This document shows positions 1-49,303 of a stretch of DNA of 64,000 nt, in pieces (position 1 is the first letter of the stretch; each line of letters begins with the position of its first letter). The stretch is from positions 1 to 64,000 of the forward strand of contig JBBPEB010000026.1 of NCBI GenBank assembly GCA_039096225.1. Direction: 5' to 3'. The translations under genes and the position numbers were made by a program. The notes below the pieces were generated by a model. It ran no database searches. It was given only the letters and a program-made list of their open reading frames with translations, and had not been told where the DNA came from. Source of the stretch: Blastocystis sp. Blastoise. Taxonomy: Eukaryota > Protista > Bigyra: Opalinata.

Positions 1-81
1 AACCCTAACCCTAACCCTAACCCTAACCCTAACCCTAACCCTAACCCTAACCCTAACCCTAACCTAAACCTAACCCTAACC

Positions 82-113
<32 letters not shown>

Positions 114-265
114 CTAACCCCTAACCCTAACCCTAACCCTAACCCTAACCCTAACCCTAACCCCTAACCCTAACCCTAACCCTAACCCTAACCCTAACCC
201 TAACCCTAACCCTAACCCTAACCCTAACCCTAACCCTAACCCTAACCCTAACCCTAACCCTAACC

Positions 266-306
<41 letters not shown>

Positions 307-350
307 CCCTAACCCTAACCCTAACCCTAACCCTAACCCTAACCCTAACC

Positions 351-391
<41 letters not shown>

Positions 392-517
392 CCCTAACCC
401 TAACCCTAACCCTAACCCTAACCTAACCCTAACCCTAACCCTAACCCTAACCCTAACCCTAACCCTAACCTAACCCTAACCCTAACCCTAACCCTAACCC
501 TAACCCTAACCCTAACC
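1..517. repeat. Telomeric repeat array (CCCTAA)n / (TTAGGG)n, chromosome left end
   Basis: Continuous CCCTAA units from base 1 to about 517 with a few variant units (CCTAA, CCCCTAA, CCCTAAA); C-rich strand on +, as expected at a left end. Confidence 0.98.
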
Positions 518-3947: not shown

Positions 3948-4101
3948 TATACAGTTTATATACAGTTTAATTTTATTTAGTATACAGTTAATATACAGTT
4001 AATATACAGTTAATATACAGTTAATATACAGTTAATATACAGTTAATATACAGTTAATATACAGTTAATATACAGTTTGTTTACAGTTTGTTTACAGTTT
4101 T
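3948..4101 (+). repeat. 11-bp tandem array TATACAGTTAA just upstream of the tyrosine recombinase gene
   Basis: Eight perfect units at 3981-4068; variants TATACAGTTTA at 3948 and 3959; TATACAGTTTG, TTTACAGTTTG and TTTACAGTTTT at 4069-4101. Ends about 90 bp before the ATG at 4194. Confidence 0.92.
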
Positions 4102-4193
4102 TATTTTATATTAAAATATAATTGATTAAAAAAAAACTATTCAGAAAAAAATAAGTTATAAATAACAATATTTATTTTTCTTATTTAATAGTA

Positions 4194-5780
4194 ATGAAAA
4201 GAATTGTATGATATAATATACATAATACATGATAAATAAATTATTTATATTTATATAGCAAAACCAAATAAGTATTAATCAATTTGATTGTATCTAATAC
4301 CAAAATAATTTATATATTATTATTAATAAATCTATATATTAATTATTAAAATTATAGCGAATACTAAAAGTAATAAAATCAAAAAAAATAACAATCGTTT
4401 TAAAAATGATATACTAGAAACTCAACAATTATCTATTGATTCTACTTATGAAAAAACTCGTCAATCAAGTACACCTAAAAAAAGTATATATATACTATAA
4501 TAATATCTTATAATAAAATAGAAATCTCATCTTCAAATAACAATAAATTTCAAAAACAAAATAAAAAAATATTAAATAATAATTGTAATATATATATATA
4601 TACATTAATAATAATATAATTTTCATTTCATAAATAATATATATAGTTAATACAATTTTGATCGATGATTCTTCTTCTTGTTCTTCTTTTCCTCCTAGTC
4701 CTTTATCTAAAGACCCTAATCCATTATATATGAATAGTGATCTATATTACTCACCTTCTATATCATCTCCTTCTATTCATTCTATTCAATTTAATTTATC
4801 TTCACCTTCTATATCATCTCCTTCTCCACATATATCAATTTTTAATAATAATCATAATAATAATAATAATTCATCTATCAATAAATTTAATTCATCTTCA
4901 TCTTCTATATCATCTCCTTCTCCACCTATATCAATTTTTAATAATAATCGTAATAATAATTCATCTATCAATAATTTTCATTCATCTCCTTCTATTCATT
5001 CTATTCAATTTAATTCATCTCCTTCTATATCATCTCCTTCTCCACCTATATCAATTTTTAATAATAATCATAATAATAATTCATCTATCAATAATTTTCA
5101 TTCATCTCCTTCTCCACCTATATCAATTTTTAATAATAATCATAATAATAATTCATGTATCAATAAATTTAATTCATCTCCATCTTCTATATCATCTCCT
5201 TCTCCACCTATATCAATTTTTAATAATAATCATAATAATAATAATTCATCTATTAATCAATTTTATACATCTCCTTCTCCACCTATATCAATTTTTAATA
5301 ATAATCATAATCATAATTTATCTATCAATAAATCTCATTCATCTCTATCTCCACCTATATCAATTTCTAATAATAATAATAATGATTTATCTATCAATAA
5401 ATTTCATTCATTTCCTTCTCCACCTATATCAACTTTTAATAATAATCATAATAATAATTCATCTATCAATAATTTTCATTCATCTCCTTCTCCACCTATA
5501 TCAATTTCTAATAATTCTATTAAATCTACTATATCTAATAATAATTTAAATAATCAATGTAATCCCAATTCTATAAATAAACAATTACCTGCTTGTCATG
5601 AATTTCCTATTGAAGCATCATTTCTTTCACCGATTCTACATAAAAATATAAAAATAAAAAAGAAATCTATAGATAATAAAGAATATGATTCTATTAAGAT
5701 AAATAATAATCAATCTTATAAATTCAATTCTAACAAGAATAATGACGAAATTCAAGATAATGTAATTGATATAGACTCAC

Positions 5781-5836
<56 letters not shown>

Positions 5837-6203
5837 ATAATGGGAAAATTATATCAAATAAGAATAAAATAGACTATATACCACTAGCAATTAAAAATAA
5901 TGAAGAAGAAGATGATGAAGAAATTCTAATAAGTTCAGAAGAACTCAAAACATTTCTATATACATTATCAAGTAATAATTGTTTATATATTAAATGCATT
6001 ATTATTATTATAATTCATACGATATATAGATATTCAAAATATAATTAAGAATAATAATGAAATAGATGAAGAAGTATAAATATATTTTAAAATAATATTT
6101 TTTGATTTATATATATATATACTCAATAGATAAGATCAGAAATATATAATTTTTTGAAGCAATACAAAATAAATCTTGATGATAATGAAGTATATTTAAA
6201 ATC

Positions 6204-6260
<57 letters not shown>

Positions 6261-6562
6261 TAATATATATATACAGGATTTTATGAATAATTTGTGTAAT
6301 TTAATTTTGAACTCGGATACAAACTATACTAAACATGTATATATTTAAATAATAATCATATTTATTTTAATTTTAATTTATAGATTATTACTAACCCACT
6401 ACTTGTAAAAGATTTGGATCTTCAAACCTATATATATCTGCAATTAGGATATGTATCTATATATATATTATATGTATATACATTTAAAAATATAATAATT
6501 CTAGATACTTAAGAAAAATAACAATAATGAAGAATCATTAAATACAATTCAAGAATTAAGAA

Positions 6563-6621
<59 letters not shown>

Positions 6622-6940
6622 CCTGTAAAATTAAATGAAAAAATAAATCTTGGTGAGAAATCATTAGAAATAAATAAAAATCTTCTTGGTTGCTTTTTAC
6701 CAGAACGATTAAGTGATGATGATATTAGTCGCCTATATAATATAATAAAATATTGGAAATATCAAAGAAAGTGTAGTAGAAAAAGAATTCTACTAATGGA
6801 TACAAATACAAAAATATTTATAAAATATGCTTTACCTTTAATTAAATCTGTGATTACTGGAGACTTCTATGAAAACGGGGTTGAGGATAAAATACCGGAT
6901 ATATCTATATATTCTCTATCTGAGAAACAAATTTTGTATC

Positions 6941-6972
<32 letters not shown>

Positions 6973-9900
6973 TATATATATATATATATAGTTATGAAAT
7001 TATGCTTAGTATTTGTGATATAATCAATTTTGCTTTTGTATTATATCAGGAAGAACTTGATCATTATGGTTTGAATATTTTACTATTTCCTGATTTTATA
7101 TATAAATACGTTACTCTAAATATTCTGCCCAGATCAAATTGTCCAAAAACCCTTCATAATAGAATACAAGAGATAAGATCTATAATTACCTATATAGAAA
7201 GAAAAAATGTATATATAGATAATAAAATGAAAGATATAATAAAAGAAACACTAACATATATTACTCACAAGTCTTCAGTTATGATTACAGATAGCAATTT
7301 CATTAGTAAAAATGATAGTAAAGCTTTTGAGGATTTGAATAAGAAAAAGAAAATGGAAGCTCTTATCTCTTTACAAGATTACTACAATATAATTAGAACA
7401 TTATTTGAAAAAATTAATATATATATAGAAGAAATTAATAATAAGAAAAATATTAATGATATATATATAAAAAAATTTCATACTATTACGATTCTTATGA
7501 TGTATCTCCTTCAGACTTGCACAGGCTGTCCACTTAGAAATAATGATATATATAATTTGAAATTATTTGAAAACCTAAAGAAATATAGAAATGAAAATAC
7601 TAAAAAAGAATATATATATATAATACATACAGGATCTAAGAATGGAAATATTCCTTATTCTGACGGCAAAAAATTTCCTGATATATATATTTTATGCGAA
7701 AAATTTCAAAAGATATATGATAAATATATAATTATAAGAAATCAAATATGTGAATATTTAAAAGATAATGATATTGAATATACAACAAATTTATTCCTAT
7801 ATATACGAAAACCAAATACTAATAGTAATTATGTAGCATCCCAATTCACATATAGTACCTATCCCACTATGTATACCTATATATATATATTTATCTAAAT
7901 CTATATATATATATATATATATATATTAACTTATATACCTATATAGTTGTAAACATCAATTAAAAAAATTATTTAGTAACATACCTAAAGATCACTCAGG
8001 TTATTCCTATAGACATTGTTTTGCCACTTGGTTTGGAAGAACAAATTGTGTTAATCCTCTTTATTGCCAAAGTTTCATCAGAAGTTGCCATCATACAAAT
8101 GATGTTCATGACAAATACTATAATCTAAATATAAAATATAAAACTATATATAATAATAATGATTTTAAATTAAATGATTTATGTACTTCTGAGCTTGGTA
8201 TAAAAGTATTCATTGATTATGTCCTGGATAAACAATTCGCTAAAGAAATGAATTATTTTGTCCCAGAAAGAGATATTGATGGTAACCTAATAACCATTCA
8301 TGAAGCTCTAGTATGTAGATATCTATATATATATATATATATATATATAGACTTGCTCATATGAATTACTGGTTAGAAAGTGTACATTCAATTATGATAT
8401 AAATCGTTATATTGAATCAAAAGAAGATATATCATCTAAAGTATTCATATTATCAATATTATCCATATTATTTTTATTATCGATATTATTTATATTATTC
8501 ATGTATATTCATATTATCCATATATATTCATATTCATATATATTCATATTCATATTCATATTCATATTATCCATATATATTCATATTCATATATATTCAT
8601 ATTCATATTCATATTCATATTATCCATATATATTCATATTCATATTATTCATGTATATTCATATTATCCATATGTATTCATATTCATATTCATATTCATA
8701 TTCATATTCATATTCATATTATCCATATATATTCATATTCATATTATTCATGTATATTCATATTATCATATATATCCCATAGATGGAATCAAAAGATAGT
8801 GCTAAAATAAATAATTGTAACAATGAAAATAAATATATTAAATTATCAGATCAACAAATATCTCCTATAATTATATCTCCCATTATAAAGTTCAATAGTA
8901 TGAATGATGATGAAAATAAAAAAAGTATAGAACTTATTTCTCCTCTTCTTCTTCCTTCATTTAATTCTAATAACAATGATAATAATTATAGTATAAATGA
9001 TTCATTAAATAATCAATATAATCTAAATAATAATAATATATTAAATAATTATTATTCTCCAATTCCAAGTATTCATAATTCTGTTGAAGATATTAATCAG
9101 TTTAATATTTCTATCATTTCCAATAGTGATAATTCTATCAATGATAATTCTTCTAAGCAAATAATAAATAATTTATCTAATCCATTAATCAACAATAATA
9201 ATCAAAATAATAATAATTCTTCTAATTCATTCATTAATAATTCTTCTTATCCAATATCAAATAATAATCATAATTTATCTAATCCAATAGTAAATAATAA
9301 TCATAATTTATCTAATACATCAATCAATTATAACAATTCTTCTTATCCAATATCAACTAATAATCATAATTTATCTAATACATCAATCAATTATAACAAT
9401 TCTTCTTATCCAATATCAAATAATAATCATAATTTATCTAATACATCAATCAATTGTAACAATTCTTCTTATCCAATATCAAATAATAATCATAATTTAT
9501 CTAATCCAATAGTAAATAATAATCATAATTTATCTAGTACATCAATCAATTATAACAATTCTTCTAATCCATCAATCAATAATATCAATTATCTTAGTTC
9601 ATCAATCAATAATAACAACAATCTTAATTCATCAATCAATAATAATAATTATCTTAATTCATCAATCAATATTAATAATCAAAATAATAATAATTCTTCT
9701 AATTCATTCATTAATCATAACAGTTCTTCAAATCCATTAATAAATAATAATAACTATCTTAATTCATCAATCAATTACAATAATTCATTAAATCCAATAA
9801 TTAGTAGTAATGATAATATAATTTCTTCATCTCCTAATATCTTATTAAATAATATCAATAATAATTTGGCTAATCCAATAATTAGTAATAGTAATAATAT

Positions 9901-10354
9901 TTCTTTCCAAAAACTTCAAAATACTAATGAATATGCATCTAAAGTTATTCAAAATAATAACCAATCTTCAGCTAATATAATTTCAGCTAATAATTCTAAT
10001 ATACAATCATCTATTAAATATAATATTGATAATATTAATGCTGATAATATAATACCTACTGATGTATATGATTATACTTCATTATCTGAAAATAATGATA
10101 TAAGCAAAGAAATTCATAATCAATCATCAAATTTATCTATAAATTATTCAAATGATAATATTAATATTTGTATATATATATATAATATAATATAATATAA
10201 TATATATATATATAATGTATATAATATAATAATATAATATTTATATATATATATATACAGCTAGTTGTTATAATAATAGTCAAAATAGTCAATATGAAAA
10301 TGATCCTATACAAATAAATAATAAACAAACATATAATCTAATTAGTATTATATA

Positions 10355-10414
<60 letters not shown>

Positions 10415-10639
10415 TAATGAGATAATAGTTAATGAAAAACAATATGTATATAATATAATATAATATAATATAATATAATATAATATATATAGTATACATT
10501 CTTACATGAAGGATCTTTTCCAAGTGAATTATTTGATTTATATTTATATTTAAATGTTTATAACAAAATTGTAACAACCAATAATATAAATTTATTCATT
10601 CATAACTACTATAATTATAATGATTTTATTAATGATTCT

Positions 10640-10679
<40 letters not shown>

Positions 10680-11004
10680 TATTATTATTCATATATATAT
10701 AGCTATATAATATATCTTATGAAATTCAATTTCATTTTAATTCCAATTCACCAATATTTTTTATATTTACAATCTATTTAAAGTATTCATCTATATATAT
10801 ATATATTATTATTATTATTATTATAGAAATAAAGATAGATATTATTTAATAATTAATAAACTGACAAATGGTGATAAAAAGAAAACACTTACAATTAATA
10901 TATACAATTTCTTTGATATTGAAGATGGAAATGATAAATATCTCAATCAAATAATTAATCAAATCAAAAAGTATATTTAATTATTTTAATAGAATTATCT
11001 ATCT

Positions 11005-11042
<38 letters not shown>

Positions 11043-11390
11043 TTATTTAAAACTAATACATCAAAAATTATTGTTCAATATAAAAAAGTATATATATATA
11101 TATACTTATATATATATATATATAATAAAAAAATATTATATATAAAGTGTGATAAATCTTATGATAATAACAATGCAATTCTTATATTTGGAATGATTAA
11201 ACAATTTATCAAAGAATATAATATGTTTCAAAAAAATATAAAACATATTAGAAACTTGTATATATATATATATATACAATAATAACTTTTATATATATAT
11301 AGAAATTTTGATTATGATAATATAGATTTAGATTCTGAACAATTAAACGTTAATAAATTCTTCTTATATCACCTAAATAAAGAAAAATAA
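4194..11390 (+). CDS. Multi-exon tyrosine recombinase (integrase family) protein, about 1,850 aa, with Ser/Pro/Asn repeat regions and a degenerate Ulp1-like C-terminal region
   Basis: Manual GT-AG splicing joins about 24 exons in one frame from ATG 4194 to TAA 11388-11390, incorporating ORFs 4658, 6154, 6796, 7002 and 8783. Box I LLQTCTGCPLRNNDIYNL (R at 7536); candidate K in HTGSKNG. Exon 7947-8310, absent from the ORF track, reads PKDHSGYSYRHCFATWFGR...IRSCHHTNDVHDKYYNL (R 8011, H 8089/8092, Y 8116/8119). Confidence 0.85.
4790..5515 (+). repeat. Coding minisatellite encoding SSPSPPISIFNNNHNNNSSINxFH-type repeats
   Basis: About nine to ten imperfect copies of tcatctccttctccacctatatcaatttttaataataatcataat in exon 5 of the YR gene. 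Confidence 0.85.
8441..8782 (+). repeat. Intron built from (TATTCA)n hexamer repeats with higher-order duplication
   Basis: GT at 8441, AG at 8781-8782, phase 0 on both sides; the interior is nearly all ATATTC units punctuated by ATTATCCAT. Confidence 0.85.
9236..9565 (+). repeat. Coding 60-bp minisatellite (NNHNLSNTSINYNNSSYPIS) in the YR gene
   Basis: Near-identical 60-bp lines at 9301, 9361 and 9421 plus partial copies on both sides. Confidence 0.85.
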
Positions 11391-13848
11391 ATTATTTTAT
11401 GTATATATGATATTTTTAATAAATATATTTATAATTACTATTTCTTATGTATTCTTTTTTGTTGACTTTAAATAAATATACATATATACAATATAATTAT
11501 AAAATAATTTACAAGAAATATAAATGAAAATTATATATACATATCAAAAAGAAAAAATAATAATAATATATACCTTTTATTATCAGTAGTTACTAATTGT
11601 ACTCCTTTCTCACAAAACTCTCAAATAGCATTACATGATATAGTACAAATCACCATATTATCTTTTAGATATCATGAAGTATATGTATATAGAAGATTAT
11701 ATTAAAAGAATGAAATGATATTCCTATATATATATATATATATAACATATAAATGAAAACCATATATATACATACTTTTATTATCAGTACGATTATAAAC
11801 ATCCCATATTCGACCAAGAATCCATATCATATATTCTCTTACAATTATAACTATTCAATTCAACCACTTTATAATCAATCTATATAATATATAAGAGTAT
11901 ATAATAAAAAAATATTTACTTCTTGATAACAATAAGTTTCTGAGAATATTGCTAATATTTCAATTATTATTATTCTTCCATAAAATTCTACAATTCATTT
12001 TTTAGAAAGATATAAATAATAAGCTAATAATAAAATATATATTCTTTAGTTGAAGATAATTAAAGAATTTAAGAATATATAGTAGTTAAAATGAATTAAA
12101 TAAATCTTATCTTAATTTACAATTTTTTTAATATAATAAAAGAAGAAGAGTATTTATAAGATTAAAAGAAAGAAATAAGAAGAGTAAATAAGTGTAGAGA
12201 CAGTAATAGGAGTAGTAGAACATATAAAATAAATAACTAAATCAGTTACATGAATTCATAATAATAATAACTCTCTCTATATATAGATGGAATAGTTAGT
12301 ATAGTTATAATAAATAAAAAAATAAATAGAATATATATATTAATATATTATGACTAATCTAAAAATATATATACATAAATTTAAGTCTCTCTGTATATAA
12401 AATAGAATAATATCAAGAAGGATTGCAATATAAACTATATCTTTACAAGTCAATATAGGATCTACTAACTCTTCTATATATATAATAATGAATAAAAAAT
12501 AAATATATAATATTATATACCTCTTTGTTAATCATTACATTTTTTTTTCCTTTAATATTTTCTTTTAGTTTTTCTATTTCATCATTAATATCATTATCAA
12601 TGTATTTCATTTCTTTTCTCATTTTATTTCAGTTTCTTATTTACTTTTATTCTTTGTTAATTTCTTAAAATTATATATTTCATCTTCTAATACGTAATAA
12701 ATTATAAATATAGTAATAATATCATTAGCAATACTTACAGTAATTATTTACCAGAATCAATACATAATGATAAATATTCAACTAAAGTAGGTAATAGTAA
12801 TAGTTAAATATTATATAAATATTATAAAGAAGAAAAAATAATTTTAATAATAATAGTATTTTCTTTAATCTTAAAAGTAGTATTCAGTAATACTTCATAT
12901 AAAGGAGTTCATAAATCAAATAATAAAGATTTCCATTTATTTTTATTATTATTATAATCACCAATACATTCAACTATTTTCTTTATACATCAACCATAAA
13001 TACAATCTTGACTAAATTTTGTTTTAATTCGATTTGAATCTACTTTAGAAGTAATAGTAGTCATGTTTATAGATTATTCAATTTCAATTTTTATATTTAT
13101 TTTATTATATTTTTATTTTTATTTTTATTTTCAATATTCTCATCATTTTCATTTATATATATTTTTCTTCTTTTAATAATTTTATAATTTTTATTATTAT
13201 TATAATTATTTCATATATTCATTCAATAACACCTAATATATAAAGAATAAATAAACTACTAAGATCTCTCCTATATCTAATAACTCATAATAACTTTTTA
13301 AATATGTTAAATTACGAGTATCTAAACCTTTCTTACAAATACATGAGCTAATAATATAGTTATATCTTCTTCTGATTGAATAGGAGGTATACATAAATCT
13401 TTTATAAATAAACATAATAATATCTTAAATAATAATTATTTTAATTCTTCATAATCTAATAAAGATAATAATTTAAAATAGAATGACAATTTATATTATA
13501 AATTGTTTTTGAATTTAGCTTCTTCAAATAATCTACATAATAAAATACCTTCTATAATAGGTATAATAAGATTTCCATATTCCACTTTTATAACTCCTTG
13601 ATCTTTCTCTATATATAATCATAATACAGTATCACAATAATTCAATTCATCACATAATCCTAATAAACTTTCTTTATATAGAACAATAACTAAATTATTA
13701 TAATAACATAACAATTCACGACATATATTCTTCAAAGAATCATCTAAAAAAATACTTTAAATATCAAGCCAATTACTGAAATTTTTAAGAAGAATTTCAG
13801 ATATGTATCTGTTTCATGTAGACGTAGTGCATAGGTATATAGTTTTTA

Positions 13849-13987
<139 letters not shown>

Positions 13988-14011
13988 TGTTCCTTTTTTA
14001 AATAAAAATAA

Positions 14012-14712
14012 TAGTAATATTCATTTTTTAAGATTTTCTTCGAATTCAGTATGAATTGGTTTCATCACCTTATATTCTTCAATATCATAAACTATTTTAT
14101 AACCATAAGATTTCTTATTTAGGAAATCAATAAAAATAATCTCATATATTATTTATTAAATAGAAGAATATAAGTAACTACATTAATAGGAGAATAGAAT
14201 AATAATATTCAAGATGTATTAATTTTTTTATGACTATATAAAATATATAAAAATAACATAAAACTATAATAAGAATAAATATATTAATTATAACTATAAT
14301 AAGTATATATATATACCTATAGAATAGTTCTTCCTTCATTTATAATCGATATTTCAATATATATATAAGTTTAAAATATTTAATAATAAATTTATAGCTA
14401 TCTTATATTTTTTTAAACTATATATAATATCCTATTTCTTTTCTTTTTAGATAATATAATATATTGTATATAAATCGATATATTTACATCTATATATTAA
14501 TTAATAAGATATCTTTTAACACAAAAATAATTCCAATATTATTTATTTTCAAAACTAGCAATTCAAATGTAATATTCAATTTATTTATTCCTAAAAATAA
14601 TTCCATTTTAAATAATAAAGACCAAATATAGGATATATAAATATAAATAAGGATAACATTCAAATAACTATCTAGTTAATAACATCTCAATTGTTTTTGT
14701 TTCTATATATAT
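14012..14712 (+). repeat. Segmental duplicate, copy A (direct-orientation paralogue of 29595-30275)
   Basis: Shared identical core aatagaagaatataagtaactacattaataggagaatagaataataatattcaagatg and collinear similarity over about 700 bp. Confidence 0.9.
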
Positions 14713-14748
14713 ATATATATATATTTCTTATCAGTTCTTTTTTTTTAA

Positions 14749-14792
<44 letters not shown>

Positions 14793-14848
14793 TGATTAGT
14801 GAGGAGAGTGAGTAATTTACATATAATAGTAATAGTTTGAATGTATTC

Positions 14849-14879
<31 letters not shown>

Positions 14880-15216
14880 TTATGAACAGATTCGTTTAAT
14901 ATATCAATATCTTTATTTGTTAACTATATATATATAATAAAAATATAATTATAATAAGAACAAATATAATAATAAAAAAATAAATAGATAAAAGAATATA
15001 TGTGTTGAAGGAGATAAAAAAGATATTTACAATATTTATATATTTAAACACCATCATAACAACACATCTATTATATATAATAAGTAATATATATTTATAT
15101 ATACTCTATTCCTCATATATATAATGAGTAAGTAACTTATTAGCAATTTATTTCTGTATTATTACCAACACAATAAATAATACAGTTGAATTAATTATTT
15201 CCTATATATATAATAA

Positions 15217-16670: not shown

Positions 16671-17360
16671 ATGTATGTTATCTATTTATCATCTCTATAT
16701 CTCCTAGCTGTCTCATTCTTAGGTCTTGTAGTCTCTCCATTCTTCAAAATCTCCATTCCTTTTGCTGTTCTTCAAAAAGTGCTTAAAATGGTATATATTC
16801 TATATTATTTATCTATTTAATATTATATATTTATTTAGGAAGTCTTGGTGTTACCTGATTGGTGATCTCTGTGTTGGTTTCCTTTCTTGTTGGTTTTAAT
16901 GTGTTCAAACAATCTACAAGGTATTTATATATTTATTCTATTCATTTTATTATTATTTTATATAGTTTAAAGGTTAATTCACCCATCATGGGTTCGTTGT
17001 TTCCTTTCTTCTTTGGTTTTAATGCTCTCAAACTATTATGATGTTCTTTATGACCTTTCTATTCTACTCAAATGATCTCTTCTTTATCAAAAATATCCTT
17101 TTTCCTGTATATTTTTATTTATTTATTTTTTCTTTTTTTTTTATTATTTTTTATTCTTTATTTACTTTTATATTATTATAAATATATTTATTATCATCTT
17201 ATTTATTTATATACAGTATTTATATATAGTTTTTGTTATCAAAGAGATGATCATCGTCTCCATTGTGCTTGATATTTTTCTTCTTTTGCTTCTATTTGGA
17301 TTCTTTGTCTTGTTTATAGTCTTGTAATGTTATTTGAGATGAATTGGGTTACAATTTTAG
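16671..17360 (+). pseudogene. Small spliced-looking unit without an intact ORF (pseudogene or lncRNA)
   Basis: Higher-GC exon-like blocks (16709-16791, 16839-16921, 16966 onward) separated by GT..AG AT-rich introns; the frames I translated hit stops. Confidence 0.35.
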
Positions 17361-17741
17361 GTATCTTATGTAAATATATATATTATATTTTTATTTTTTT
17401 TTTATTATATTTGTCTTTATCTATTATATATTTATTTTTTATATTTACATATTTATGTGGTTTATTATACTATTTTATATTATTTTTATTAACTATTTTA
17501 TATAATATATATTTTATTTTTTATGTATTTTGTTCTCTTGGTGTATTAATAGCTTTGTTGCTTTCGTATATATATATATATATATATTTATACATAATCT
17601 TTTTTTATTCTAATATTTCCCTTTTTTTTCCTTTCACATTGGTATTCCTTTCTTGTAACTTTTATTGTGTTTTTCTATAATTTTATATATATATATATTA
17701 TTTTCTATTCATATATACTTATAATTACTTTTGTTTATCGT

Positions 17742-17803
17742 ATTTAAGCTCCATAATGGATGGATATATATATATATATACAGGTTCAAATCCTGGCTTA
17801 AAT
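17742..17803 (+). ncRNA. tRNA-like element, copy 1 (putative Pol III unit; anticodon arm replaced by (AT)n)
   Basis: ATTTAAG/CTTAAAT acceptor-like stem, CCAT-AATGG-ATGG D-like hairpin, CAGG-TTCAAAT-CCTG T arm with B box GGTTCAAATCC, T runs downstream. Confidence 0.55.
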
Positions 17804-17912: not shown

Positions 17913-17982
17913 ATTTAATTTCTATAAATGGATAGAATATATAAATATTATATATATATCAGGTTCGATTCCTGACTTAAAT
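17913..17982 (+). ncRNA. tRNA-like element, copy 2
   Basis: ATTTAAT/CTTAAAT stem, CTAT-AAATGG-ATAG D-like hairpin, TATAT-AAATATT-ATATA arm, TCAGG-TTCGATT-CCTGA T arm with B box GGTTCGATTCC, TTTT downstream. Confidence 0.55.
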
Positions 17983-20032: not shown

Positions 20033-20635
20033 TTTTTTACCCTAATAACATTTTGGTTGACTTTTTTATTTTAATTCATTCTATTGGCTTATTTCATCCT
20101 ACAATCGTAGAATCGTAGACTCTACGATTCTACGATTGTAGACAGCCAATCAAATTCATTTTCCTACAATCCTACAATCGTAGAATCGTAGACTCTACGA
20201 TTGTAGACTACCAATCAAATTCATTATCTTATATTCTACAATCGTAGAATCGTAGAGTCTACGATTCTATGATTGTAGAAATGAAAAACTCTATTTTTAT
20301 TGGATAAATCTTTTTTTATCCAATTATTTTCTTCTTTTTTCAATTCTACAATACCCAATTATTTTATTTTATTTTTTTAACCAATTAAATTAATTATTTT
20401 CACCCTAATAAAATTTTGAGAACCCTTCTTTTAAAACATTACCACTTTATTCTATCATTTTTTTACCCTAATACTATTTTGGTTCACTTTTTTACCCTAA
20501 TACTATTTTGGTTGATTTTTTTTTAAACTTATTCTATTGGTTTATTTAATCCTACAATCATACAATCGTAGACTCTACGATTCTACGATTCTAGACTACC
20601 AATTAAATCAATAATATCTTTTTTTATCCAATTAT
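20033..20635. repeat. Cluster of four long palindromes built from 8-bp AATCGTAG units, interspersed with CCAAT boxes and ACCCTAATA motifs
   Basis: 20099-20141 is a perfect inverted repeat with 21-bp arms and a 1-nt centre; related copies at 20172-20206, 20234-20280 and 20552-20594; segment 20033-20150 recurs at about 20489-20605. Confidence 0.93.
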
Positions 20636-20697: not shown

Positions 20698-20713
20698 CCC
20701 TAACCCTAACCCC
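20698..20713 (+). repeat. Interstitial telomere-like seed CCCTAACCCTAACCCC
   Basis: About 2.5 telomere units in the same orientation as the terminal tract; other seeds at 805-815 and 21207-21216. Confidence 0.6.
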
Positions 20714-21469
20714 TGAATTTATGACACTAAAATCTATTCCAAAACAAGAATTACAAAAATGTTTTCTTTTAAAATTTTATTTTTTTTCATATATTAATTT
20801 TATTTATATCTAAAAAATAGCAAATTAAAATTTCATAATAATTTTTATTTAACTTCTTTTACAATTCTAGATATTTCATAGAATTATTTATTTACTATTC
20901 ATTATTTAAAAATAAAATATTTATTCTTATTTCTTTTTAATTAATTACTTAATAACATTAATATTAATTTTTTAATTATTTTACTTTATGTAGATTCTTT
21001 GACATATAAAACATTTTCACTAATAATCAGGTTTTAGTTTTTTAGAAAAATAACTCTTAAGTTTGACCACTATCAGCCTCTAGAAAAGCACTAAATAGGA
21101 ATAAAAAATCACATTCTGACTCTAGAGTCAACACCAAATAACGTATATGACACCACTATCAGACCCAATATTTTTTTAAGAAGCAATTTCAGAAATGTAT
21201 TTGGTTCTAACCCTAAGCAAATAAAAATACACGAGAAATAAAACATATATATTATTTAATTAACATAATATGGATATTAATGATATATAAAAGGGTTTAA
21301 TAAGTCATTTCATATTTAATTAATATCCTTTTTAATCCCAAAACAACTCATTTTCATTTTATAGTATTATAAACAGAAAAATAATAAACTAATAAAAATA
21401 ATACATAAATAATTAATAAACTAACATAGATTTTTTTTATATGTTTAGTATTCATGCAGAGTGTCGTTT

Positions 21470-21933
21470 TTTGACCAATTTTTAAAGACTATAAAAATGT
21501 AATTATAAAAATGTTGATAATTTAATAATAATAAATTATACACCTTATATAAACACATCAAACATCATCTTATCTTCAATTTCAAAATCATTTTAATAGA
21601 CTATATATAGTTTAAAATAAAAAATGATAAAAAAATAATTATAAATAATATATATTAAACACGCACATCAATCAACGATTACACTTCAAGGACCACCAGC
21701 TAAAAAAGCCAATTATTACTATTATATAAAAATATTTAAAGCATACATTTCAAAGTAAGTCATTCCTGATCAGTAGAGCACCAAAAACAAAGTTATAACT
21801 ATAAAAAGTAGATAAATAGAGAAATAAGAACATATCTTCATCCAAGAGAAAAAATTGTGTTCATCTCCTATTTATTTGAGCCATAAATGATAGCTATATA
21901 ATAAATTATATAAAAAAATAATGATACATACCA
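21470..21933 (-). pseudogene. Small spliced-looking minus-strand unit, no intact ORF
   Basis: ATG followed by GTATG donor at about 21933, then short higher-GC exon-like blocks with stops. Confidence 0.3.
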
Positions 21934-27329: not shown

Positions 27330-29560
27330 CATTAATATTGTTTTTTATAAAATTCAATATAGTACGAATAATAAATCTTAACCATTTTTATCATTCTTTA
27401 TATTATTATTATTATTTGAATTATTATTAGCAGTAGTATTAGTATCAATAATATCATTAATATTACTAATGTCTTTATGAATATCTATTTAAATATTATT
27501 ATATTATGATTATAAGATTTATTCCCTATTTCTGAATGAAACATAATATAATAGGATAATGAAGAATATTTAGTAGCTCTTCAACAAATAAAAATACCTG
27601 TAGAAGAGAGAAATGAAGGAGAAATAGGATAAGTAATACCCTCATTATTATTTATATTCATATTATTATTATTATTATTATTATAAAAATTAGTTTTGAT
27701 TGTTAGCCTTGAATTTGAAGATATAGTAATAATAGTAGTAGTAACTAATAATAGTGATGGAGAATTCGGTAATGATTGAATTGGAGATAAACAAATAGTA
27801 TGACTTCTTTTAGTCTTATAATAAGAATGTATAGTAGAAGAAGTAGTAATAATAGTAGTTGCTGTTGTAATAGCAGTAATAGGAGGATCAGTCGTTATAC
27901 TGGTAATAATTGATTTAGATGAGAATGTAGGAACAGGCATACTATTAGAGTTAGTTAAATGATTCATATCAGAACTATTATTATGATAAGAAGAAAGAGA
28001 TTCTGAAGTCATAGAGAAAGAGTATATTGTGTAGATTAGATAAAGAATGGATAGTATATGATGTAGGAGGAAGACTACTACTAACAGTAATATGTATAGG
28101 ATTAAGAGGAGTAGAAATAGTAATAGTAGTAGCATTAGGAATATAAATATTATTATTAGTAGCAATTATATAATTATTATTTATATTAGTATTATTTGGA
28201 ATTATAAAATTATTATTTATATTATTATTAGTAGTAATAACAGTATTATTTGGAGAAGAGATATTATGAATAGAATGAATAAATTCAATATTATTAGTGT
28301 ATGCCATATTATTTTCATTAGTATCATTATTATTCATAATACTATTAGTATTATAAATCATATTATTAGTGTCAGTTTTCATAATCTTATGTTCTTCTTT
28401 TATGTGAATTAAGGATTGATTCTTCTCATTATATGAGATATTATTATCATTCTTTGCAGAATTATTAATAGTATAATTCTGATCTTCTGTTGATATAAAT
28501 TATGGCATATATATATTAAAAAAATGTTCTGTAGGATCTAATATATCATTTGATTGAATATTATTATTATTATCTTCATTATTATTATTATTTGAATAAT
28601 GTATATCTATAGAAGGATTAGATGAATATAAATCTATATTATATATATATTTAGAAGAAAGAAGAAGAGCAATAGGAGTATTATAATGAGTAGTTTCAGA
28701 CTGATTATGTATATATATAGATAAACTATACGATATAGTAGAAGGTAAATTATGAATAGAAGAAGAAGAAGAATGACTAAGAAGACGTAATGATGAATGT
28801 TTTGTTTTCGAAGATTCTGTTATATCTGTTAATAGTATATTATTATCATATACTGTAGATATACTATTTGAATGAAATCGATTATTTTGAGGTATTCTAT
28901 TTATACTATTCTTCTTTTTAAATAATTCTTTATCTTGAAGAATTATAGGACTTAATATATTCTTATTTATATATTCATTTTATGAATCATTGTAATGGTT
29001 TATAGCTATTTTATTAGTTAATATAAAGTTATTTGAATTATTATTATTTATTTGAATTATTATTACTATTCACAGAAATAAATTATTTATAAAACTTGAT
29101 GTATCTTCTTCATTTGCTGTAGTTAAATATGTTAGAAACAGAGAACATGTCTTTTGAGATATATATATGTATCAGAATATATATTATTTTCTTGAATAGA
29201 AGAATATGATTGAGTATAATCATTTGATATAGGTATAGTTGAAGATGATAAAGGTTGTGTTGAATAATTAGAAGAATCTGTAAATGAATGAGATGAAGAA
29301 GAAGGAATAGTAGATGAAGATCTATGTGTAGTTGTAATAGGAGAAATATTTGTATTATTAATAGAAGGAGAAGGAAAGATAGAAGGAGACATTGAACGAA
29401 GTGGAATAGATGAATGAGATTTCGGAGTTGAAAGCACAGAAAGACTTTTTCGATTCATAAATAATCGCCTTAATAATGTGTTATTCCAATGGGAAAGAGA
29501 AGCTTGATTTGGTTTATTTTTTTGTTGTGAGGATCGCATAGAAGAAGGAAATACTATAGT
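27330..29560 (-). pseudogene. Fragmented Ser/Thr/Asn-rich low-complexity coding region
   Basis: ORFs 29132-29632, 27981-28382 and 27581-28165 share composition and switch frames, consistent with one broken exon. Confidence 0.5.
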
Positions 29561-29594
29561 ATTATTATTATCTTTATTATTATATATAACAAAA

Positions 29595-30275
29595 TAGTAA
29601 TATTTATTTTTAAAGAATTTCTTCAAATTCATTCTGAATTTGTTTCATCACATTATATGCTTTAATATCATAAACTATTCTATAATCATAATATAATTAT
29701 TTAAAAAAGAATCTCATAAATTATTTTTAAATAGAAGAATATAAGTAACTACATTAATAGGAGAATAGAATAATAATATTCAAGATGCATATAATTTTTT
29801 ATGACTATAAATATATATAAATAATATATAACTATAATAAGAATAAATATAGTAATTATAACCATAATAAGAATATATATATACCTATAGAATAGTTCTT
29901 CTTCCATTTATAATCGATATTTCAATATATATATAAGTTTAGTATATTTAATAATGTTTATATCCTTCTTTTAACACTTCTAAACCATATACAACAATTT
30001 ATTTCTTTTCTTCTTAGATAATATTATATATTTTATATAAATCGATACATTTATATATTCATTAATAAGACATTTTTTAACATAAAAATAATTCAAATAT
30101 AAGCTATTTTCAAAGCTAACAATTCAAATATAATATTTAATTCATTTATTCAAAAAAATTAATTCCATTTTAAATAATAAAGACCAAATATAGTATATAT
30201 AAATATAAATAAGGATAACATTCAAATAGCTATTTAATGATTAATATTTGAATTGTTTTCTCTATCTATATATAT
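29595..30275 (+). repeat. Segmental duplicate, copy B (paralogue of 14012-14712)
   Basis: Collinear similarity with copy A, including an identical core of about 58 bp. Confidence 0.9.
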
Positions 30276-30319
30276 ATATTCTTATAAATTTTTATTGTTA
30301 GAAATATATATATATATAT

Positions 30320-31280
30320 ACATTATCAAGGTACTAAGTATATTAAATAGATCAACAGACCCAACAAATGAATTAAATGAATCATCCTCTATAGAATATA
30401 TATGTACTATATATATATATATTATTATTATTATAAATAATAGATACATATTATACAAACAATATATATATATAATATATATATTATACAATATCTTTAT
30501 ATACATCAAGTTATTGGAAACCCTTAGGAATATAATGCTTGTAAATGGGAGATATGAATTGTTGTAAGGGTAAGAATAATGATTTGAAGGCAAGAATATG
30601 AAAAGGAGGGACTTTTAGAAGATAATAATTATATAAATCTATATATATATATAATATTTGTTGATTAATAACTTTTATAAAACATTTAATTTAAAAGTAT
30701 AGAAAGAAATATATAGATTCAAAATGGTAGTTGAGAAACTACATATATGTATATATACTTGATAAAAATAGAATAATAAATATAAAGAATAAAAGATAAA
30801 TTATTAAATGTCATGAATATTCTATATAACAAAGAAGAGAGAAATATACAAAAAATGTTACACTGTTATATGTATAATAATAATTCATATATACAAAACT
30901 ATCATCTTTATAAAATGGTATTAATGAGAATATCATATAATTCTCTTCATTTAATTTAATAGTATAAACATATTCATAATGTAAAATATATTCACAACTG
31001 TTCTCTATAATAATAATATAATAATCTCTATCTTCCCTGAAACACTTTTTTACAGCAATTGTCATAAAAAATATGACACCTTTGTTATTTTTTAACAATG
31101 TAAAATAATTTTTATTCAACTGTATTATGTCTGATTTAAATGTCTTTCTGTGATAGTCACAACAAGTACCAAAAAATATTGGCAAGACACCGATATTACT
31201 TTTTATATATTTCATCAAATTTATCTTCTTTATTATTTATTCAAATTTTCTATATTATTCTATTATTCATCTATATTTAT
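30320..31280 (-). pseudogene. Decayed gene fragments, including a possible BTB-like remnant (ORF 30811-31218)
   Basis: Exon DLYNYYLLKVPPFHILAFKSLFLPLQQFISPIYKHYIPKGFQ*LD has an in-frame stop; ORF 30811 contains DRDYYIIIIENSCEYILHY, loosely BTB-like. Confidence 0.35.
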
Positions 31281-32088: not shown

Positions 32089-33652
32089 TTATGCTCTTCC
32101 CCATACTTCATAATCTTCTACTGTAAAATTATTAGTAGAATTAGCATTATTAGTATTTACAAATAATGAATGTTTTTGAGGAGTATTCACTTCAGAATAA
32201 GAATGTGCATTACAATAAGAATTAGTATTGCTATGACATTGATCAGATATATGGATATCATTGCCACCTCCAAATGTTGGACCATAAGAAGAAGAACAAC
32301 ATATACCATAGCTACTATTAATATTATCATATTTAGTAGGAGTAATACCATGTTCATTACTTAAAGTAAATAGAAATTCTTTAGAATTAGGTTTCCAACC
32401 TATATAAATGATATTGAATAATTATATAAATAAATAAATATACCATATGAACTATCCCAATTTTGATTTGTATATCCTCCAAATATATTAATATGATTAT
32501 TATGACCTTTATGTTTGATTATAGTTACTGTTTCTTCTGTATTATCACAATATTTATGAAATTCACTTAGAGAATAATAATGTTCACTTGCTCTATATAT
32601 AATGATATAATATAATAAAATAATAAATACCTAAATAATAATTTCCATTTCTTTTCTTTACCAAGCCAATTCATTAAGGGTGTAGCAAGTTCTTGATTAA
32701 TTATTGTTGATAATTTAAAACACATATTTACATTCCAGTCCATTTTTGAAGATTCTATTCCTTTATCACCAAATAAACAATAGATTTCAGTTTCTAATCT
32801 ATTTCGATCAACTTTTAAAATATCATCATCAGATATATAAATGTGATTTGTCTTTACATATTCATATATATAATCAACATATTCAAAACTCATATTCATA
32901 AACATAAAATTCTCTTTTTCATCATAATCTACATATCCATATCCATATTCATTAACAATATTATTCCATAATCCATTCTTCTTCAAATAATCTCTTAATA
33001 TACCATCTTTCTTATCATTTATATAAAGAATAACATCATCACCTTCTTCATATTTCTTAATATTGTGATCTCTTTGGTAATAAACTTTCATTAATTCTTC
33101 AGGCATAGGTAAATTACAATATTCAAGCATTCTTAATAAATCAATTTGATCACCTAATTTAAATTTATCAATATTCACTTTTTTATTCATTAAAGAATCA
33201 ATTAATAAAGGAAAAAGTGTTTCATCACCACGATAATCTAAATAAATACTTCCATCATTAGCCCTTTGATTTTCTTGGGAATATTCATAAAGAAGACTAC
33301 CCACTAAACTATTTGTTACTCTTTTAGGAAGAGAATAAACTGGACCTTTATTAGTGAATCGAATATAATCAATTCCATTATCATTATTATTCATAGTAGC
33401 ATCATATTCATTCAGAAAAGAAGATTCTTGGATAATTATATGTGGATCATCACCATTCTTATCATTCATTCCTTCACAATTTCTAGTTAATCGATTCACT
33501 AATTCATTCACGGACTCACCTGAATGAATACAGAAACTTATTGACTTACTTAAAATACCAATCAAATCACCAATCAGTCTTTCAAAATGAAATACATCCT
33601 TCTGAATATCACCCATCTTATCAGCATCAAATCCTACCTTCTCTTTCACCAT
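32089..33652 (-). CDS. BTB/POZ-like plus TLDc domain protein (3 exons)
   Basis: N-terminal DGSIYLDYRGDETLFPLLIDSL (KCTD-type BTB-like); spliced C-terminus KKWKLLFRASEHYYSLSEFHKYCDNTEETVTIIK..IFGGYT..W..FLFTL..YGPTFGGGNDI..VEDYEVWGRA* is a classic TLDc; introns at about 32593-32630 and 32400-32442. Confidence 0.9.
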
Positions 33653-35472
33653 TCTTAACAATAAAAGAAATAAAATAAAAATGAAAACTTTTTAAAAACT
33701 ATTTTTCCATCCTATAAAGAGAAACATGTCTCTCTTATTCAAAATTCTAGTTAAATAACTCAATTGTGAAATATATTTTTATAGCGTAAAAAATAATAAT
33801 AATCGTAAATATTTATAAAAAACTAGGTTTTCACCAAATCACGATTATTTTTGATTTATTGACTTTTATTTTAAAATAAATACAGATTATTTTCAATTTT
33901 TTTATTCTTTTTTTAAATCTCTATATTATTCATTTAAATTGCATTTATAATGAAAAATATTTTATTTTGTTATTTATAAATCATGTAATCTACAAGAATA
34001 ACATTAAAATAGATCAGAATAAACAAATAATTATCATTCTTCATTCCATTAGCTAAGGTAACAAGTCAATTTTATATTAAATTTAAATCAGAATGTTCTA
34101 ATAATTATAAATTACTATTCATTACTTGTAAGAATTATCATTTATTCACATTTTGGTTTCAAATCTTCTTCATAGGATCTATTTGAGCTTCAATTCATAT
34201 TCTATGTTATTTAGATAATTATAATTCACATGAATCACTGATCTAAATTATAATTATGATGTTTCTTTAGCTAATCATTCCAATTCTATCCTCGATTTAA
34301 TATTTTTATATATTTATTGCATTCATAATATAATTCTTTACCCATTCAAATTATTTTATTTCTTTCAATTTCAATATCCTTCTAGTTAATTAAAAAAACA
34401 TTATTTTTTCTATTTTTATTCTTTAAAGAAATTAATCATAATATATCTTGTACTCCTTATAATCATCATGTAAATGAGTATATTATTTCCATCCAAACAA
34501 TTATTATCACTTTTATTTTTGTATACTATTCAACAAAAAATAATTATCTAAGATACTTAACTTATATATATTTACCATATTCATCTATAGACCAAATATG
34601 ATTAGCTCACAGTACAGAACGTTTCTTATTCATTATCTTATTTAAAAAATATCAATTATATAATAAATAATTAAATTATGGTATAATAGCATATAAAATG
34701 ATTTCAAGTATAGCAAATCATATATATACATTTAATAACTGTAATTTTTAAATATATTTTACATTTATAATTAATCATAAAAATTTTTTTTTTCAATATT
34801 TATAAACATGTATAATTCTATTGGATGGTATACTATATTATTAATCTATTTATATCAAAGTCTCTATATGATATTAATTATACATATACAAAAAACTATT
34901 TGGTATTTCATATATTAAGCATGAAAAGAGATTCTTATATAAACAACATATTTCCTCTATTCTTCTACAGCTTTCTTTGAAACTTCTTTTATAATCAGTA
35001 AAACAAACATATTATAACTACATAAGAAACCCTAAAACAAATATTTTTTTAAATATGAAGAATTTGTTATTCTTTTAAAAAAGTAGATCCAAAACAGTCT
35101 TTTTTCGTTTTAATACTTCATATATAGTAGTTAACAGTTGTTAAGCATTTTTTACCAAAAATTATTTCAAATTATTTTTGTATAAGAATAAATCTTTAGA
35201 AACATTTATAGTTCTAAATGAATACCTAATAAGCACAATAAAACAATGAATTCATAACAAACAATAATATATTATTTAAAAATATCAAATACTGAAAACA
35301 ACAGCTAACATATATACTGATTATTTTTATTCCATTATTTTCAAATAAAATAATAAATTTATATATATATATAATTAATAGAAATTTAAATAAATATTCT
35401 TTTTCTTATTAAAAAAAAATAAATTATATATAAAGCAACAAAAAAAAACAAAAATAAAATAATTTACCTAAT

Positions 35473-46594: not shown

Positions 46595-49303
<2,709 letters not shown>

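Follow-up and report, generated by a model that had tools for sequence, protein, structure and literature searches.

The 64,000-nucleotide stretch analysed here (the window) is the beginning of contig JBBPEB010000026.1 of Blastocystis sp. Blastoise. It opens with a telomere array, and 3.7 kb inward of this array starts a gene resembling those of tyrosine recombinases (YRs), adjoining the telomere as the preliminary description had it. The gene is real and its reading frame is intact: splicing and translation with our own model gave 24 exons of together 5,553 nt and a single open frame of 1,850 aa with one terminal TAA, in agreement with the approximately 24 exons and 1,850 aa estimated earlier, and the catalytic motifs quoted at that time were found where they had been placed. 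Described as cryptic, the gene turned out to be annotated in NCBI already, as hypothetical, and to be multicopy. The features of the locus are as follows.

1..517, plus strand: terminal telomere array (CCCTAA)n, 85.7 copies
3948..4099, plus strand: 11-bp tandem repeat TATACAGTTAA, 13.8 copies, directly upstream of the start codon
4194..11390, plus strand: YR-like gene, 24 exons, 1,850 aa, three junctions seen in run X1
Exons 1-8, plus strand (splice model): 4194-4205, 4259-4271, 4358-4483, 4522-4584, 4647-5782, 5833-5971, 6030-6073, 6130-6189
Exons 9-16, plus strand (splice model): 6277-6336, 6384-6452, 6505-6564, 6619-6935, 6992-7870, 7947-8310, 8351-8440, 8783-10169
Exons 17-24, plus strand (splice model): 10261-10344, 10414-10445, 10493-10642, 10703-10782, 10827-10970, 11042-11087, 11148-11257, 11303-11390
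6619..6935, plus strand: exon 12, beginning of the conserved core, possibly a DNA-binding region
6992..7870, plus strand: exon 13 with box I R882 (7536-7538) and candidate K916 (7638-7640); exon matched in ESM Atlas
7947..8310, plus strand: exon 14 with Y1012-x-x-R1015-H1016 (8002-8016), H1041/H1042 and Y1050/Y1051; exon matched in ESM Atlas and in a profile alignment
Protein, aa 73-450: Asn/Ser/Pro-rich repeats
Protein, aa ~595-1144: folded core with the YR-like domain
Protein, aa 1145-1606: Asn/Ser-rich repeats
Protein, aa 1607-1850: C-terminal domain without assigned family
4716..8100, continuing past 8100, minus strand: spliced antisense transcript(s), from run X1
4716-4754, 5535-5588, 6733-6835, 7190-7268, 7382-7483, 7575-7630 and 7678-7806, minus strand: antisense GT..AG introns among the listed joints
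7877-7984, minus strand: eighth antisense intron, in the coordinates of contig record 7
20099..20594, no strand: palindrome cluster flanked by CCAAT-like boxes
20698..20713, plus strand: interstitial telomere relic CCCTAACCCTAACCCC in the orientation of the terminal array, from pattern search

Gene model and subtelomeric setting

All 23 sense introns (38-342 nt) begin with GTA, and they end with TAG (20), CAG (2) or AAG (1). Three of the 13 sense introns within the covered stretch 4100-8100 were seen in sequencing run X1, which is RNA by guess; runs X2 and X3 gave no coverage. Some small exons are skipped in the NCBI models; exons 4 and 8 were included here on the basis of the X1 joints 4483/4522 and 6073/6130, and the donor of exon 2 is ambiguous, a later GT being used in the NCBI models. 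The proposed in-frame joining of 6992-7870 to 7947-8310 is common to 13/13 NCBI gene models and a Xer-like profile spans the junction 7870/7947 in register, but the junction is absent among the X1 joints listed. The latter exon does contain an in-frame ATG, contrary to what had been noted, at 8248-8250 and thus downstream of the catalytic residues. The TATACAGTTAA repeat in front of the gene may serve as a protein-binding array.

New in this analysis are eight minus-strand introns that indicate spliced antisense transcription over the catalytic exons and, about 20 kb inward, a telomere relic together with four palindromes of about 43 bp. One palindrome is perfect (20099-20141; 21-bp arms, each with a tandem 8-mer) and three are degenerate copies (20164-20206, 20235-20278 and 20552-20594). 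They are placed among CCAAT-like boxes and are candidate recombination sites or promoter elements; in metagenomes the palindrome pattern had no match. The telomere-repeat pattern had two matches outside the telomere against a chance mean of 0.15, and telomeric repeats (1-517 and the relic at 20698-20713) flank the block on both sides in direct orientation. The relic is a candidate for the inner boundary of a unit of about 20 kb that the copies of the gene may share. In addition, the window holds duplications lacking the YR (1932-2123 ~ 20827-21018, 73%; 13973-14770 ~ 29557-30323, 84%). Genes neighbouring the YR-like gene look decayed, and 1-32000 contains no Rfam match and no tRNA that could be found.

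Likely tyrosine recombinase identity of the core

Exons 13 and 14 each match YR clusters in ESM Atlas, which is one source, with first matches at 0.97 and 0.95. The named Atlas families are PF00589 and PF16795 only (clusters at 0.93-0.95), ten of the ten named matches of exon 14 fall in one clan, and the unnamed top matches of exon 13 include Preplasmiviricota clusters. Judged by sequence, the core is likely a YR. The earlier assignment to this class is borne out by the Atlas matches and by motif order and spacing, while the canonical His of HxxR is absent and the fold is unconfirmed; Y1012 stands three positions ahead of R1015, and the motif reads YxxR rather than HxxR.

Profiles lend this identity weak support, some of it circular. 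With a profile built from 37 phage integrases the score was 10.8 bits, a value reached in 0/3000 shuffles, with 1.0 for the best of 48 window ORFs; its alignment crosses the exon 13/14 junction with box II aligned, and with box II masked the score drops to chance (508/3000 shuffles). When the query was aligned glocally and without anchors to 46 viral YR-like proteins, which were gathered by the motif PPRRxxDY and which we take to be OLV11-like, R882, R1015, H1042 and Y1050 met the family landmarks, and box I of the query (CPLRNNDI) was in register with PPRRxxDY. The spacings of 27 from R to H and 8 from H to Y are those of 13 of the 33 parsed viral proteins, whereas the gap from R882 to R1015 is 133 residues compared with 86-118 across the viral set. 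With the viral profile, hmmsearch gave -2.1 bits (168/2000 shuffles; 8/3000 without bias correction), hhalign gave a probability of 1.3%, and the query reached a z of about 4, with 3/72 natural control windows higher. A pattern composed after seeing the motifs was matched by 0/20,000 shuffles, a post hoc figure which overstates significance. Other YR families could be aligned to the query only at short boxes.

No YR match was obtained in Pfam, NCBIfam, PHROGs or PDB sequences (best PDB E not below 0.4), and the viral YR-like controls are also without Pfam match (4/4). Single-sequence AlphaFold models (pLDDT 41 and 47) are too poor to show the fold; on these low-confidence models, VIA-align returned helical bundles only, and in Foldseek neither Sputnik integrase V10 (rank 30, E 0.65) nor a Staphylococcus integrase (rank 36, E 1.9) was significant.

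Homologues outside the family were found in 0/866 near-length and 0/1072 shorter-length candidates, and among 1.84 billion representatives there was none beyond this one organism; the homologues carry the name Blastocystis, in keeping with the supposed gut-type protist. One candidate (P0017) was rejected as a tandem-repeat protein that matched on 'QCTGC'. Viral contigs and metagenome contigs contained no relatives of the gene. A tblastn search with exon 14 gave one phage match at E 0.3 and three plasmid matches at E 5-7; the tblastn matches H1 and H4 proved on inspection not to be YRs. That no named eukaryotic family fits holds, as no Crypton, Starship, DIRS or viral domain was found. Of the profiles suggested for comparison, DUF3435 (Starship) had no match in the Pfam search of the gene's protein, and DUF3504, like GCR1_C (Crypton), had none in P0004 and P0005, which are without any Pfam family. 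Reverse transcriptase (RT) and RNase H were not matched in 73 ORFs, 17 ORFs or the full protein, although a decayed gene could escape notice in short exons; the 73 ORFs, which are those of 520-32000, had no Pfam match at E 0.001. Among the ORFs scanned there was no viral gene, including nimaviral core genes, and within the window no second YR remnant was found. None of the papers listed in literature searches describes a Blastocystis YR, judged by title or abstract opening, and the main text of the genome paper on these strains mentions 'recombinase', 'integrase' and 'subtelomer' zero times.

Genomic copies and antisense transcript

Thirteen 'hypothetical' proteins in NCBI, all named Blastocystis sp. 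Blastoise and spread over 8 contigs, represent copies of the gene. Their cores are 99-100% identical (290-292/292 and 120-122/122; 112/112 in the truncated P0004), and R882, R1015-H1016, H1042 and Y1050/Y1051 are kept in 13/13. The consecutive locus tags 003002|003003 and 006557|006559 fall on different contigs, which puts at least these 4/13 copies at a contig end or no more than one gene away from it, and 003001/003002 and 006854/006855 are adjacent copies. Copies occupy about 10 sites; the 33 scaffolds have as many as 66 ends, so the gene is absent from some of them. Variable sites number 7/520 in the core, 15/244 in the C-terminal domain (Fisher p 6e-4) and 11/215 upstream; since those of sibling copies are not independent, the core constraint could reflect uneven gene conversion. 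The copy P0008 is a mosaic with a diverged Asn/Ser region (309/447) and a near-identical C-terminus (242/244).

The antisense RNA is apparently spliced and non-coding and lies over the catalytic exons; four of its introns are crossed by a single 617-nt contig. We rejected the idea that the minus strand holds the true gene, since over the core no open stretch exceeds 71 aa (77 with TGA=Trp). General TGA=Trp in the genome was rejected as well, because ArgRS, an FAD enzyme and an 822-aa ORF use TGG only. Under TGA=Trp, a 242-aa minus frame at 4.4-5.9 kb mirrors the Ser/Pro repeats. A sense-spliced contig over the catalytic exons was not evident, the depths of the 7584-8100 bins being those of the antisense contig alone, which does not imply absence of the sense form, as X1 contigs drop minor paths and five joints at repeats were dropped.

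Possible modes of spread and relation to known systems

The preliminary description left open an undescribed element or a domesticated gene. The at least 13 near-identical copies, their contig-end and tandem placement, the antisense transcript, and the relic with its palindromes tilt the balance to a subtelomeric element or family over a single domesticated gene. Our preferred reading, held at a probability of roughly 40%, is a non-viral telomere-dwelling YR element. Its recombinase, likely active and highly divergent, would carry the subtelomeric block in which it lies from one chromosome end to another, and antisense RNA would dampen it. It builds on an intact multicopy gene close to the telomere with spliced sense and antisense forms in X1 (RNA by guess). 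Y1050 or Y1051 would attack the DNA, assisted by R882, K916, R1015 and H1041/1042; the mobile unit would be the block of about 20 kb from the terminal telomere to the relic, leaving as a circle and inserting again into telomeric repeats. Recombination would take place at the palindromes or at the repeat junctions and would leave some ends with copies, both tandem and dispersed; the antisense transcript may curb YR output via transcriptional interference or double-stranded RNA. In its most specific form, which we regard as rather doubtful, this would be a new kind of eukaryotic DNA transposon, non-viral and RT-free. Such a transposon would measure about 20 kb, encode a YR of 1,850 aa in a gene with 23 introns, target telomeric repeats via its own 43-bp palindromic sites, form tandem arrays at ends and be restrained by a dedicated antisense RNA that has several introns and covers the exons of the active site.

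Several observations would also fit a resident YR gene that was acquired long ago from a transposon or virus, gained introns and came to lie in a subtelomere. It would have been multiplied passively by ectopic recombination between ends, with an enzyme that does not move itself, an explanation we rate as unlikely but as the main rival. The 23 introns suggest long residence and speak against a mobile element, passive copying of genes is a property of subtelomeres, the YR-independent duplications in the same subtelomere count against self-movement, the P0008 mosaic is typical of exchange between ends, and the neighbouring genes have a decayed appearance; according to the available text, fungal intron-rich Crypton YRs resist sorting into mobile and domesticated ones (PMC13465315). 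Passive copying is, however, at odds with the retained full catalytic set and core constraint, given that the domesticated Crypton YRs in the accessible part of one paper are without catalytic Tyr and second Arg (PMC3212892). It also leaves the bracketing of the block by telomere repeats as a point against it.

Intact and constrained catalytic residues, perfect palindromes adjoining the telomere relic, and sense transcription with splicing in X1 (RNA by guess) would suit as well a host-adopted, active telomere enzyme of resolvase or protelomerase type, which would resolve end-to-end fusions or shuffle subtelomeres at palindromes and be kept at ends by acting there. Protelomerases are YR-family enzymes that act on palindromes. 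This is improbable in our view, with chromosome ends that are ordinary (CCCTAA)n arrays, copies at about 10 sites only and no homologue outside the organism, the last a weak point as GenBank, at the time of the paper, did not yet include the two other tortoise isolates. Somewhat less probable still is that the gene encodes no YR but a member of a subtelomeric multigene family, with short motifs that look like YR boxes by coincidence: the blank searches of Pfam, NCBIfam, PHROGs and PDB sequences, the exclusively helical bundles and the weak profile statistics agree with it, whereas each exon separately matches Atlas YR clusters, the four controls are Pfam-blank too, four landmarks stand in order and spacing, and shuffles did not reproduce the motif pattern, albeit with post hoc, overstated significance.

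Telomere-targeting mobile elements of eukaryotes are mostly retroelements. If the preferred reading of a self-standing telomeric YR element is true, it adds a route for remodelling chromosome ends, could partly account for the growth of subtelomeres in the genomes of tortoise Blastocystis, which are large and AT-rich, and supplies a very divergent site-specific recombinase together with a candidate target site, which are directly assayable. Large crustacean viruses are the only case of telomere insertion driven by a YR that is reported in the literature found, as far as the available text goes (PMC10871703). These nimaviruses insert into telomere repeats by a dedicated YR family, and concatemers or episomes occur; the endogenous majani-, pemoni- and some whispoviruses carry a YR in a telomere-repeat-flanked element, a layout that our locus may share, and related 28S-targeting YR genes are multi-exon like the gene here (PMC10871703, in part). 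They differ in being 278-580-kb crustacean viruses that contain core viral genes and whose YRs are of arm-binding/C2H2/SAM-like type (same portions of PMC10871703), while here the host is a stramenopile protist, no viral gene and no sequence relative was detected, and the candidate unit has about 20 kb.

In Cryptons (CryptonS/F/A/I; Glomhoppers), the YR is the sole evident mobility gene and introns are tolerated, as here; circle excision is proposed and stramenopiles are among the hosts, and the available sections do not mention contig-end clustering (PMC3212892, PMC13465315). The gene here lacks a DUF3504 or GCR1_C match and its protein is much larger. Another mark of Cryptons is a pair of terminal direct repeats of 4-6 bp. 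Starships, with a DUF3435 captain, likewise carry the YR near the block end with other genes, and a circle intermediate is hypothesised in the part available (PMC10104507); here there is no DUF3435 match, the host is non-fungal and no TIR or direct-repeat boundary is shown. The OLV11-like YRs of Polinton-like viruses and virophages (PMC4642659) connect to the gene through the Preplasmiviricota clusters among its Atlas neighbours. They are about 300 aa long, intronless, and located in 15-30-kb capsid-encoding elements according to the accessible text (PMC10120064), compared with 1,850 aa and 23 introns here; such elements contain capsid, packaging ATPase and replication genes, whereas 0/73 ORFs had a Pfam match at our locus. 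The gene and the viral set gathered here have in common a helix ahead of a box I of the form P-x-R-x-x-D, a residue other than His at the third position before the second Arg, and the 27/8 spacing; neither hmmsearch nor hhalign finds their profile similarity significant.

Near-identical genes at some of the ends and tandem arrays are also a trait of yeast Y' elements and of telomere-linked helicase genes in fungi, in which interstitial telomere repeats form the boundary. These encode helicases and use host recombination, whereas the gene described here appears to encode its own site-specific recombinase.

Gene structure and its spliced transcripts

The window begins with a telomere array (1-517) in DNA of 14-27% GC, and the gene follows at 4194-11390 on the plus strand. 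Joined through GTA..AG splice sites, 24 exons yield 5,553 nt in one open frame of 1,850 aa, which bears out the intact gene of about 24 exons and about 1,850 aa claimed in the preliminary description. The introns are 38-342 nt long and very AT-rich, the longest (8441-8782, 342 nt) being a CATATT-type microsatellite. Some details had to be corrected: the exon-2 donor is ambiguous, exon 14 (7947-8310), said to lack an ATG, carries an in-frame one late in the exon, and box II reads Y-x-x-R-H instead of H-x-x-R. Contigs from X1, a sequencing run judged to be probably RNA, show 3 of the 13 sense introns within 4100-8100 (4484-4521, 5972-6029, 6074-6129), and two sister runs placed no contigs on this interval. 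The junction 7870/7947, which joins the catalytic halves, is absent from the X1 joints listed and is used by every NCBI model in the gene family.

Seven of ten joints in the X1 contigs on 4100-8100 are CT..AC, i.e., minus-strand GT..AG introns within plus-strand exons, and a 617-nt contig spanning four of them yields, by its coordinates, an eighth antisense intron (7877-7984). Contig depth, which is not an expression measure, was 156-771 at antisense and 81-94 at sense joints. The antisense transcript is likely non-coding over the core, because its spliced sequence there holds no open frame longer than 71 aa (77 with TGA as Trp). It may stem from the convergent neighbour by read-through, or from pervasive transcription that is cryptically spliced, and it may repress the recombinase gene.

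Evidence for a tyrosine recombinase

ESM Atlas searches with exons 13 (6992-7870) and 14 count as one source, not two. For exon 13 the best matches were unnamed clusters at 0.96-0.97 (of the first three, Preplasmiviricota dominated two), and a PF00589 cluster (PF00589 in 14% of members) scored 0.93; exon 14 scored 0.94-0.95 to PF00589 (28%) and PF16795 (55%) clusters, all ten named matches coming from one clan, at a recognition of 2289, slightly below the tool's mark. A viral set of 46 distinct full-length tyrosine recombinase-like proteins was derived from 93 loci fetched by a PPRRxxDY pattern, and unanchored glocal alignment placed R882, R1015, H1042, and Y1050 on its landmarks. The alignment score was equalled by 0-10 of 2,000 shuffles over three gap settings; 3-23 of 72 natural windows matched the raw score and 3 of 72 exceeded its z. 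The R-to-H and H-to-Y spacings (27 and 8) recur in 13 of 33 parsed viral members. A phage-integrase profile (37 integrases out of 119 loci, chosen by similar motif) gave the gene 10.8 bits, which 0/3000 shuffles equalled; among 48 window ORFs the highest score was 1.0, and the viral set had a median of 3.6 and a best of 15.8. The alignment spans the exon 13/14 junction and loses its score when box II is masked (508/3000 shuffles).

That the product is something other than a tyrosine recombinase is improbable. With the viral profile the gene was not significant in plain hmmsearch (168/2000 shuffles) and reached a probability of 1.3% in hhalign, and Pfam, NCBIfam, PHROGs, and PDB returned no recombinase match to it; viral controls were also blank in Pfam (4/4). 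AlphaFold models made without an alignment had pLDDT 41 and 47, and fold searches were uninformative. We consider the product very probably a tyrosine recombinase.

Copies, surroundings and readings of the locus

In a search of longer proteins, 5 clusters among 2,285 candidates matched, comprising 13 NCBI proteins, all entered as 'hypothetical protein [Blastocystis sp. Blastoise]' and spread over 8 contigs. Core identity to the model from the window is 99-100%, and all 13 retain the four catalytic motifs. Variable sites number 7/520 in the core, 11/215 upstream and 15/244 in the C-terminal domain (core vs. C-terminus p = 6e-4, sites among sibling copies not being independent). Locus tags 003001/003002 and 006854/006855 are adjacent copies, while 003002|003003 and 006557|006559 carry (near-)consecutive numbers on different contigs, so that 4 of 13 copies are either terminal on their contig or separated from its end by no more than one gene. 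Copies 003309 and 006854-8 stand 300-307 tags from the first copy, and their contigs should hold about 340-350 genes (derived from 8,547 genes, 33.3 Mb, and 33 scaffolds in Table 1 of PMC10690189). This fits, without proving, a position at the far contig end; four copies are unplaceable by locus tag. No relatives beyond this organism were found among proteins, viral and metagenome contigs, though the two sister isolates are given in PMC10690189 as not yet in GenBank.

Features around the gene
3948-4099, 11-bp tandem array immediately upstream of the gene
32092-33691, minus strand, TLDc-domain gene
46758-48801, minus strand, arginyl-tRNA synthetase
50833-53222, minus strand, FAD-binding enzyme, L-aspartate oxidase-like by our reading
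61533-63998, plus strand, large He_PIG-domain protein

None of the 73 ORFs in 520-32000 matched Pfam, and ordinary genes (TLDc, ArgRS, FAD enzyme) begin beyond 32 kb. Beyond the terminal array, telomere-type 8-mers occur only at 20698-20711, in the orientation of that array (chance mean 0.15). Directly distal of this telomere relic lie a perfect 43-bp palindrome (20099-20141) and three degenerate copies (to 20594). The palindrome can fit the layout of typical recombinase sites (11-13-bp inverted arms, 6-8-bp spacer; PMC3212892); a promoter element is equally possible, given the CCAAT-like boxes beside it. Same-strand duplications link 1932-2123 in the distal subtelomere to 20827-21018 just inside the relic (73%, 197 nt), and 13973-14770, part of the convergent neighbour, to 29557-30323 (84%). 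These duplications suggest that the distal 20 kb was added onto an older chromosome end, represented by the sequence inward of the relic.

The gene is intact, present in many near-identical copies and spliced in sense and antisense forms; the window copy lies telomere-side, four copies stand at contig ends, and telomere repeats bracket the block. We tentatively favour a self-mobile telomeric element (probability roughly 0.4), in which a catalytically active product would excise the ~20-kb block as a circle and re-insert it at telomere repeats, the antisense transcript controlling the recombinase gene. A resident recombinase gene amplified passively in subtelomeres is a less likely account, and a host enzyme acting on telomeres is more doubtful still.

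Yeast Y' elements have a similar layout. The preliminary description had recognised no matching family; in line with this, the domain tests were negative for Crypton, Starship, and DIRS and no viral genes turned up, and the locus is therefore assigned to none of these groups. Endogenous nimaviruses, with a telomere-inserting tyrosine recombinase, as described in PMC10871703, come closest to the proposed mode of working. The locus is real and unusual, a eukaryotic tyrosine recombinase element or recombinase-derived gene family that is new in form.

Further subtelomeric observations

Telomere-like words are scattered at 20034-20510, 804-815, and 21205-21216 (TTTTTACCCTAAT four times, CCTAACCCTAA, CTAACCCTAA), and outside the terminal array CCCTAA outnumbers TTAGGG by 11 to 2, the same strand bias as in the telomere. 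Intron-containing, protein-like genes with many in-frame TGA codons at Trp-like places lie at 11500-15100 (-), 16690-17700 (+), 21640-21900 (-), and 38662-39414 (-). The stretch 16787-17677 (297 codons) has four TGA and no TAA or TAG, the 11.5-15.1-kb gene has some TAA/TAG besides TGA, and conserved genes further inward use TGG only. These genes could be pseudogenes decayed under a TGG>TGA bias or could reflect context-dependent UGA read-through. ARAGORN called no tRNA; the short repeats caggttcaaatcctggctt and caggttcgattcctgactt (17780-17800, 17960-17980), which follow TA-rich intron-like tracts and resemble tRNA T-arm (B-box) fragments, are possibly intron-split tRNA genes or their relics.
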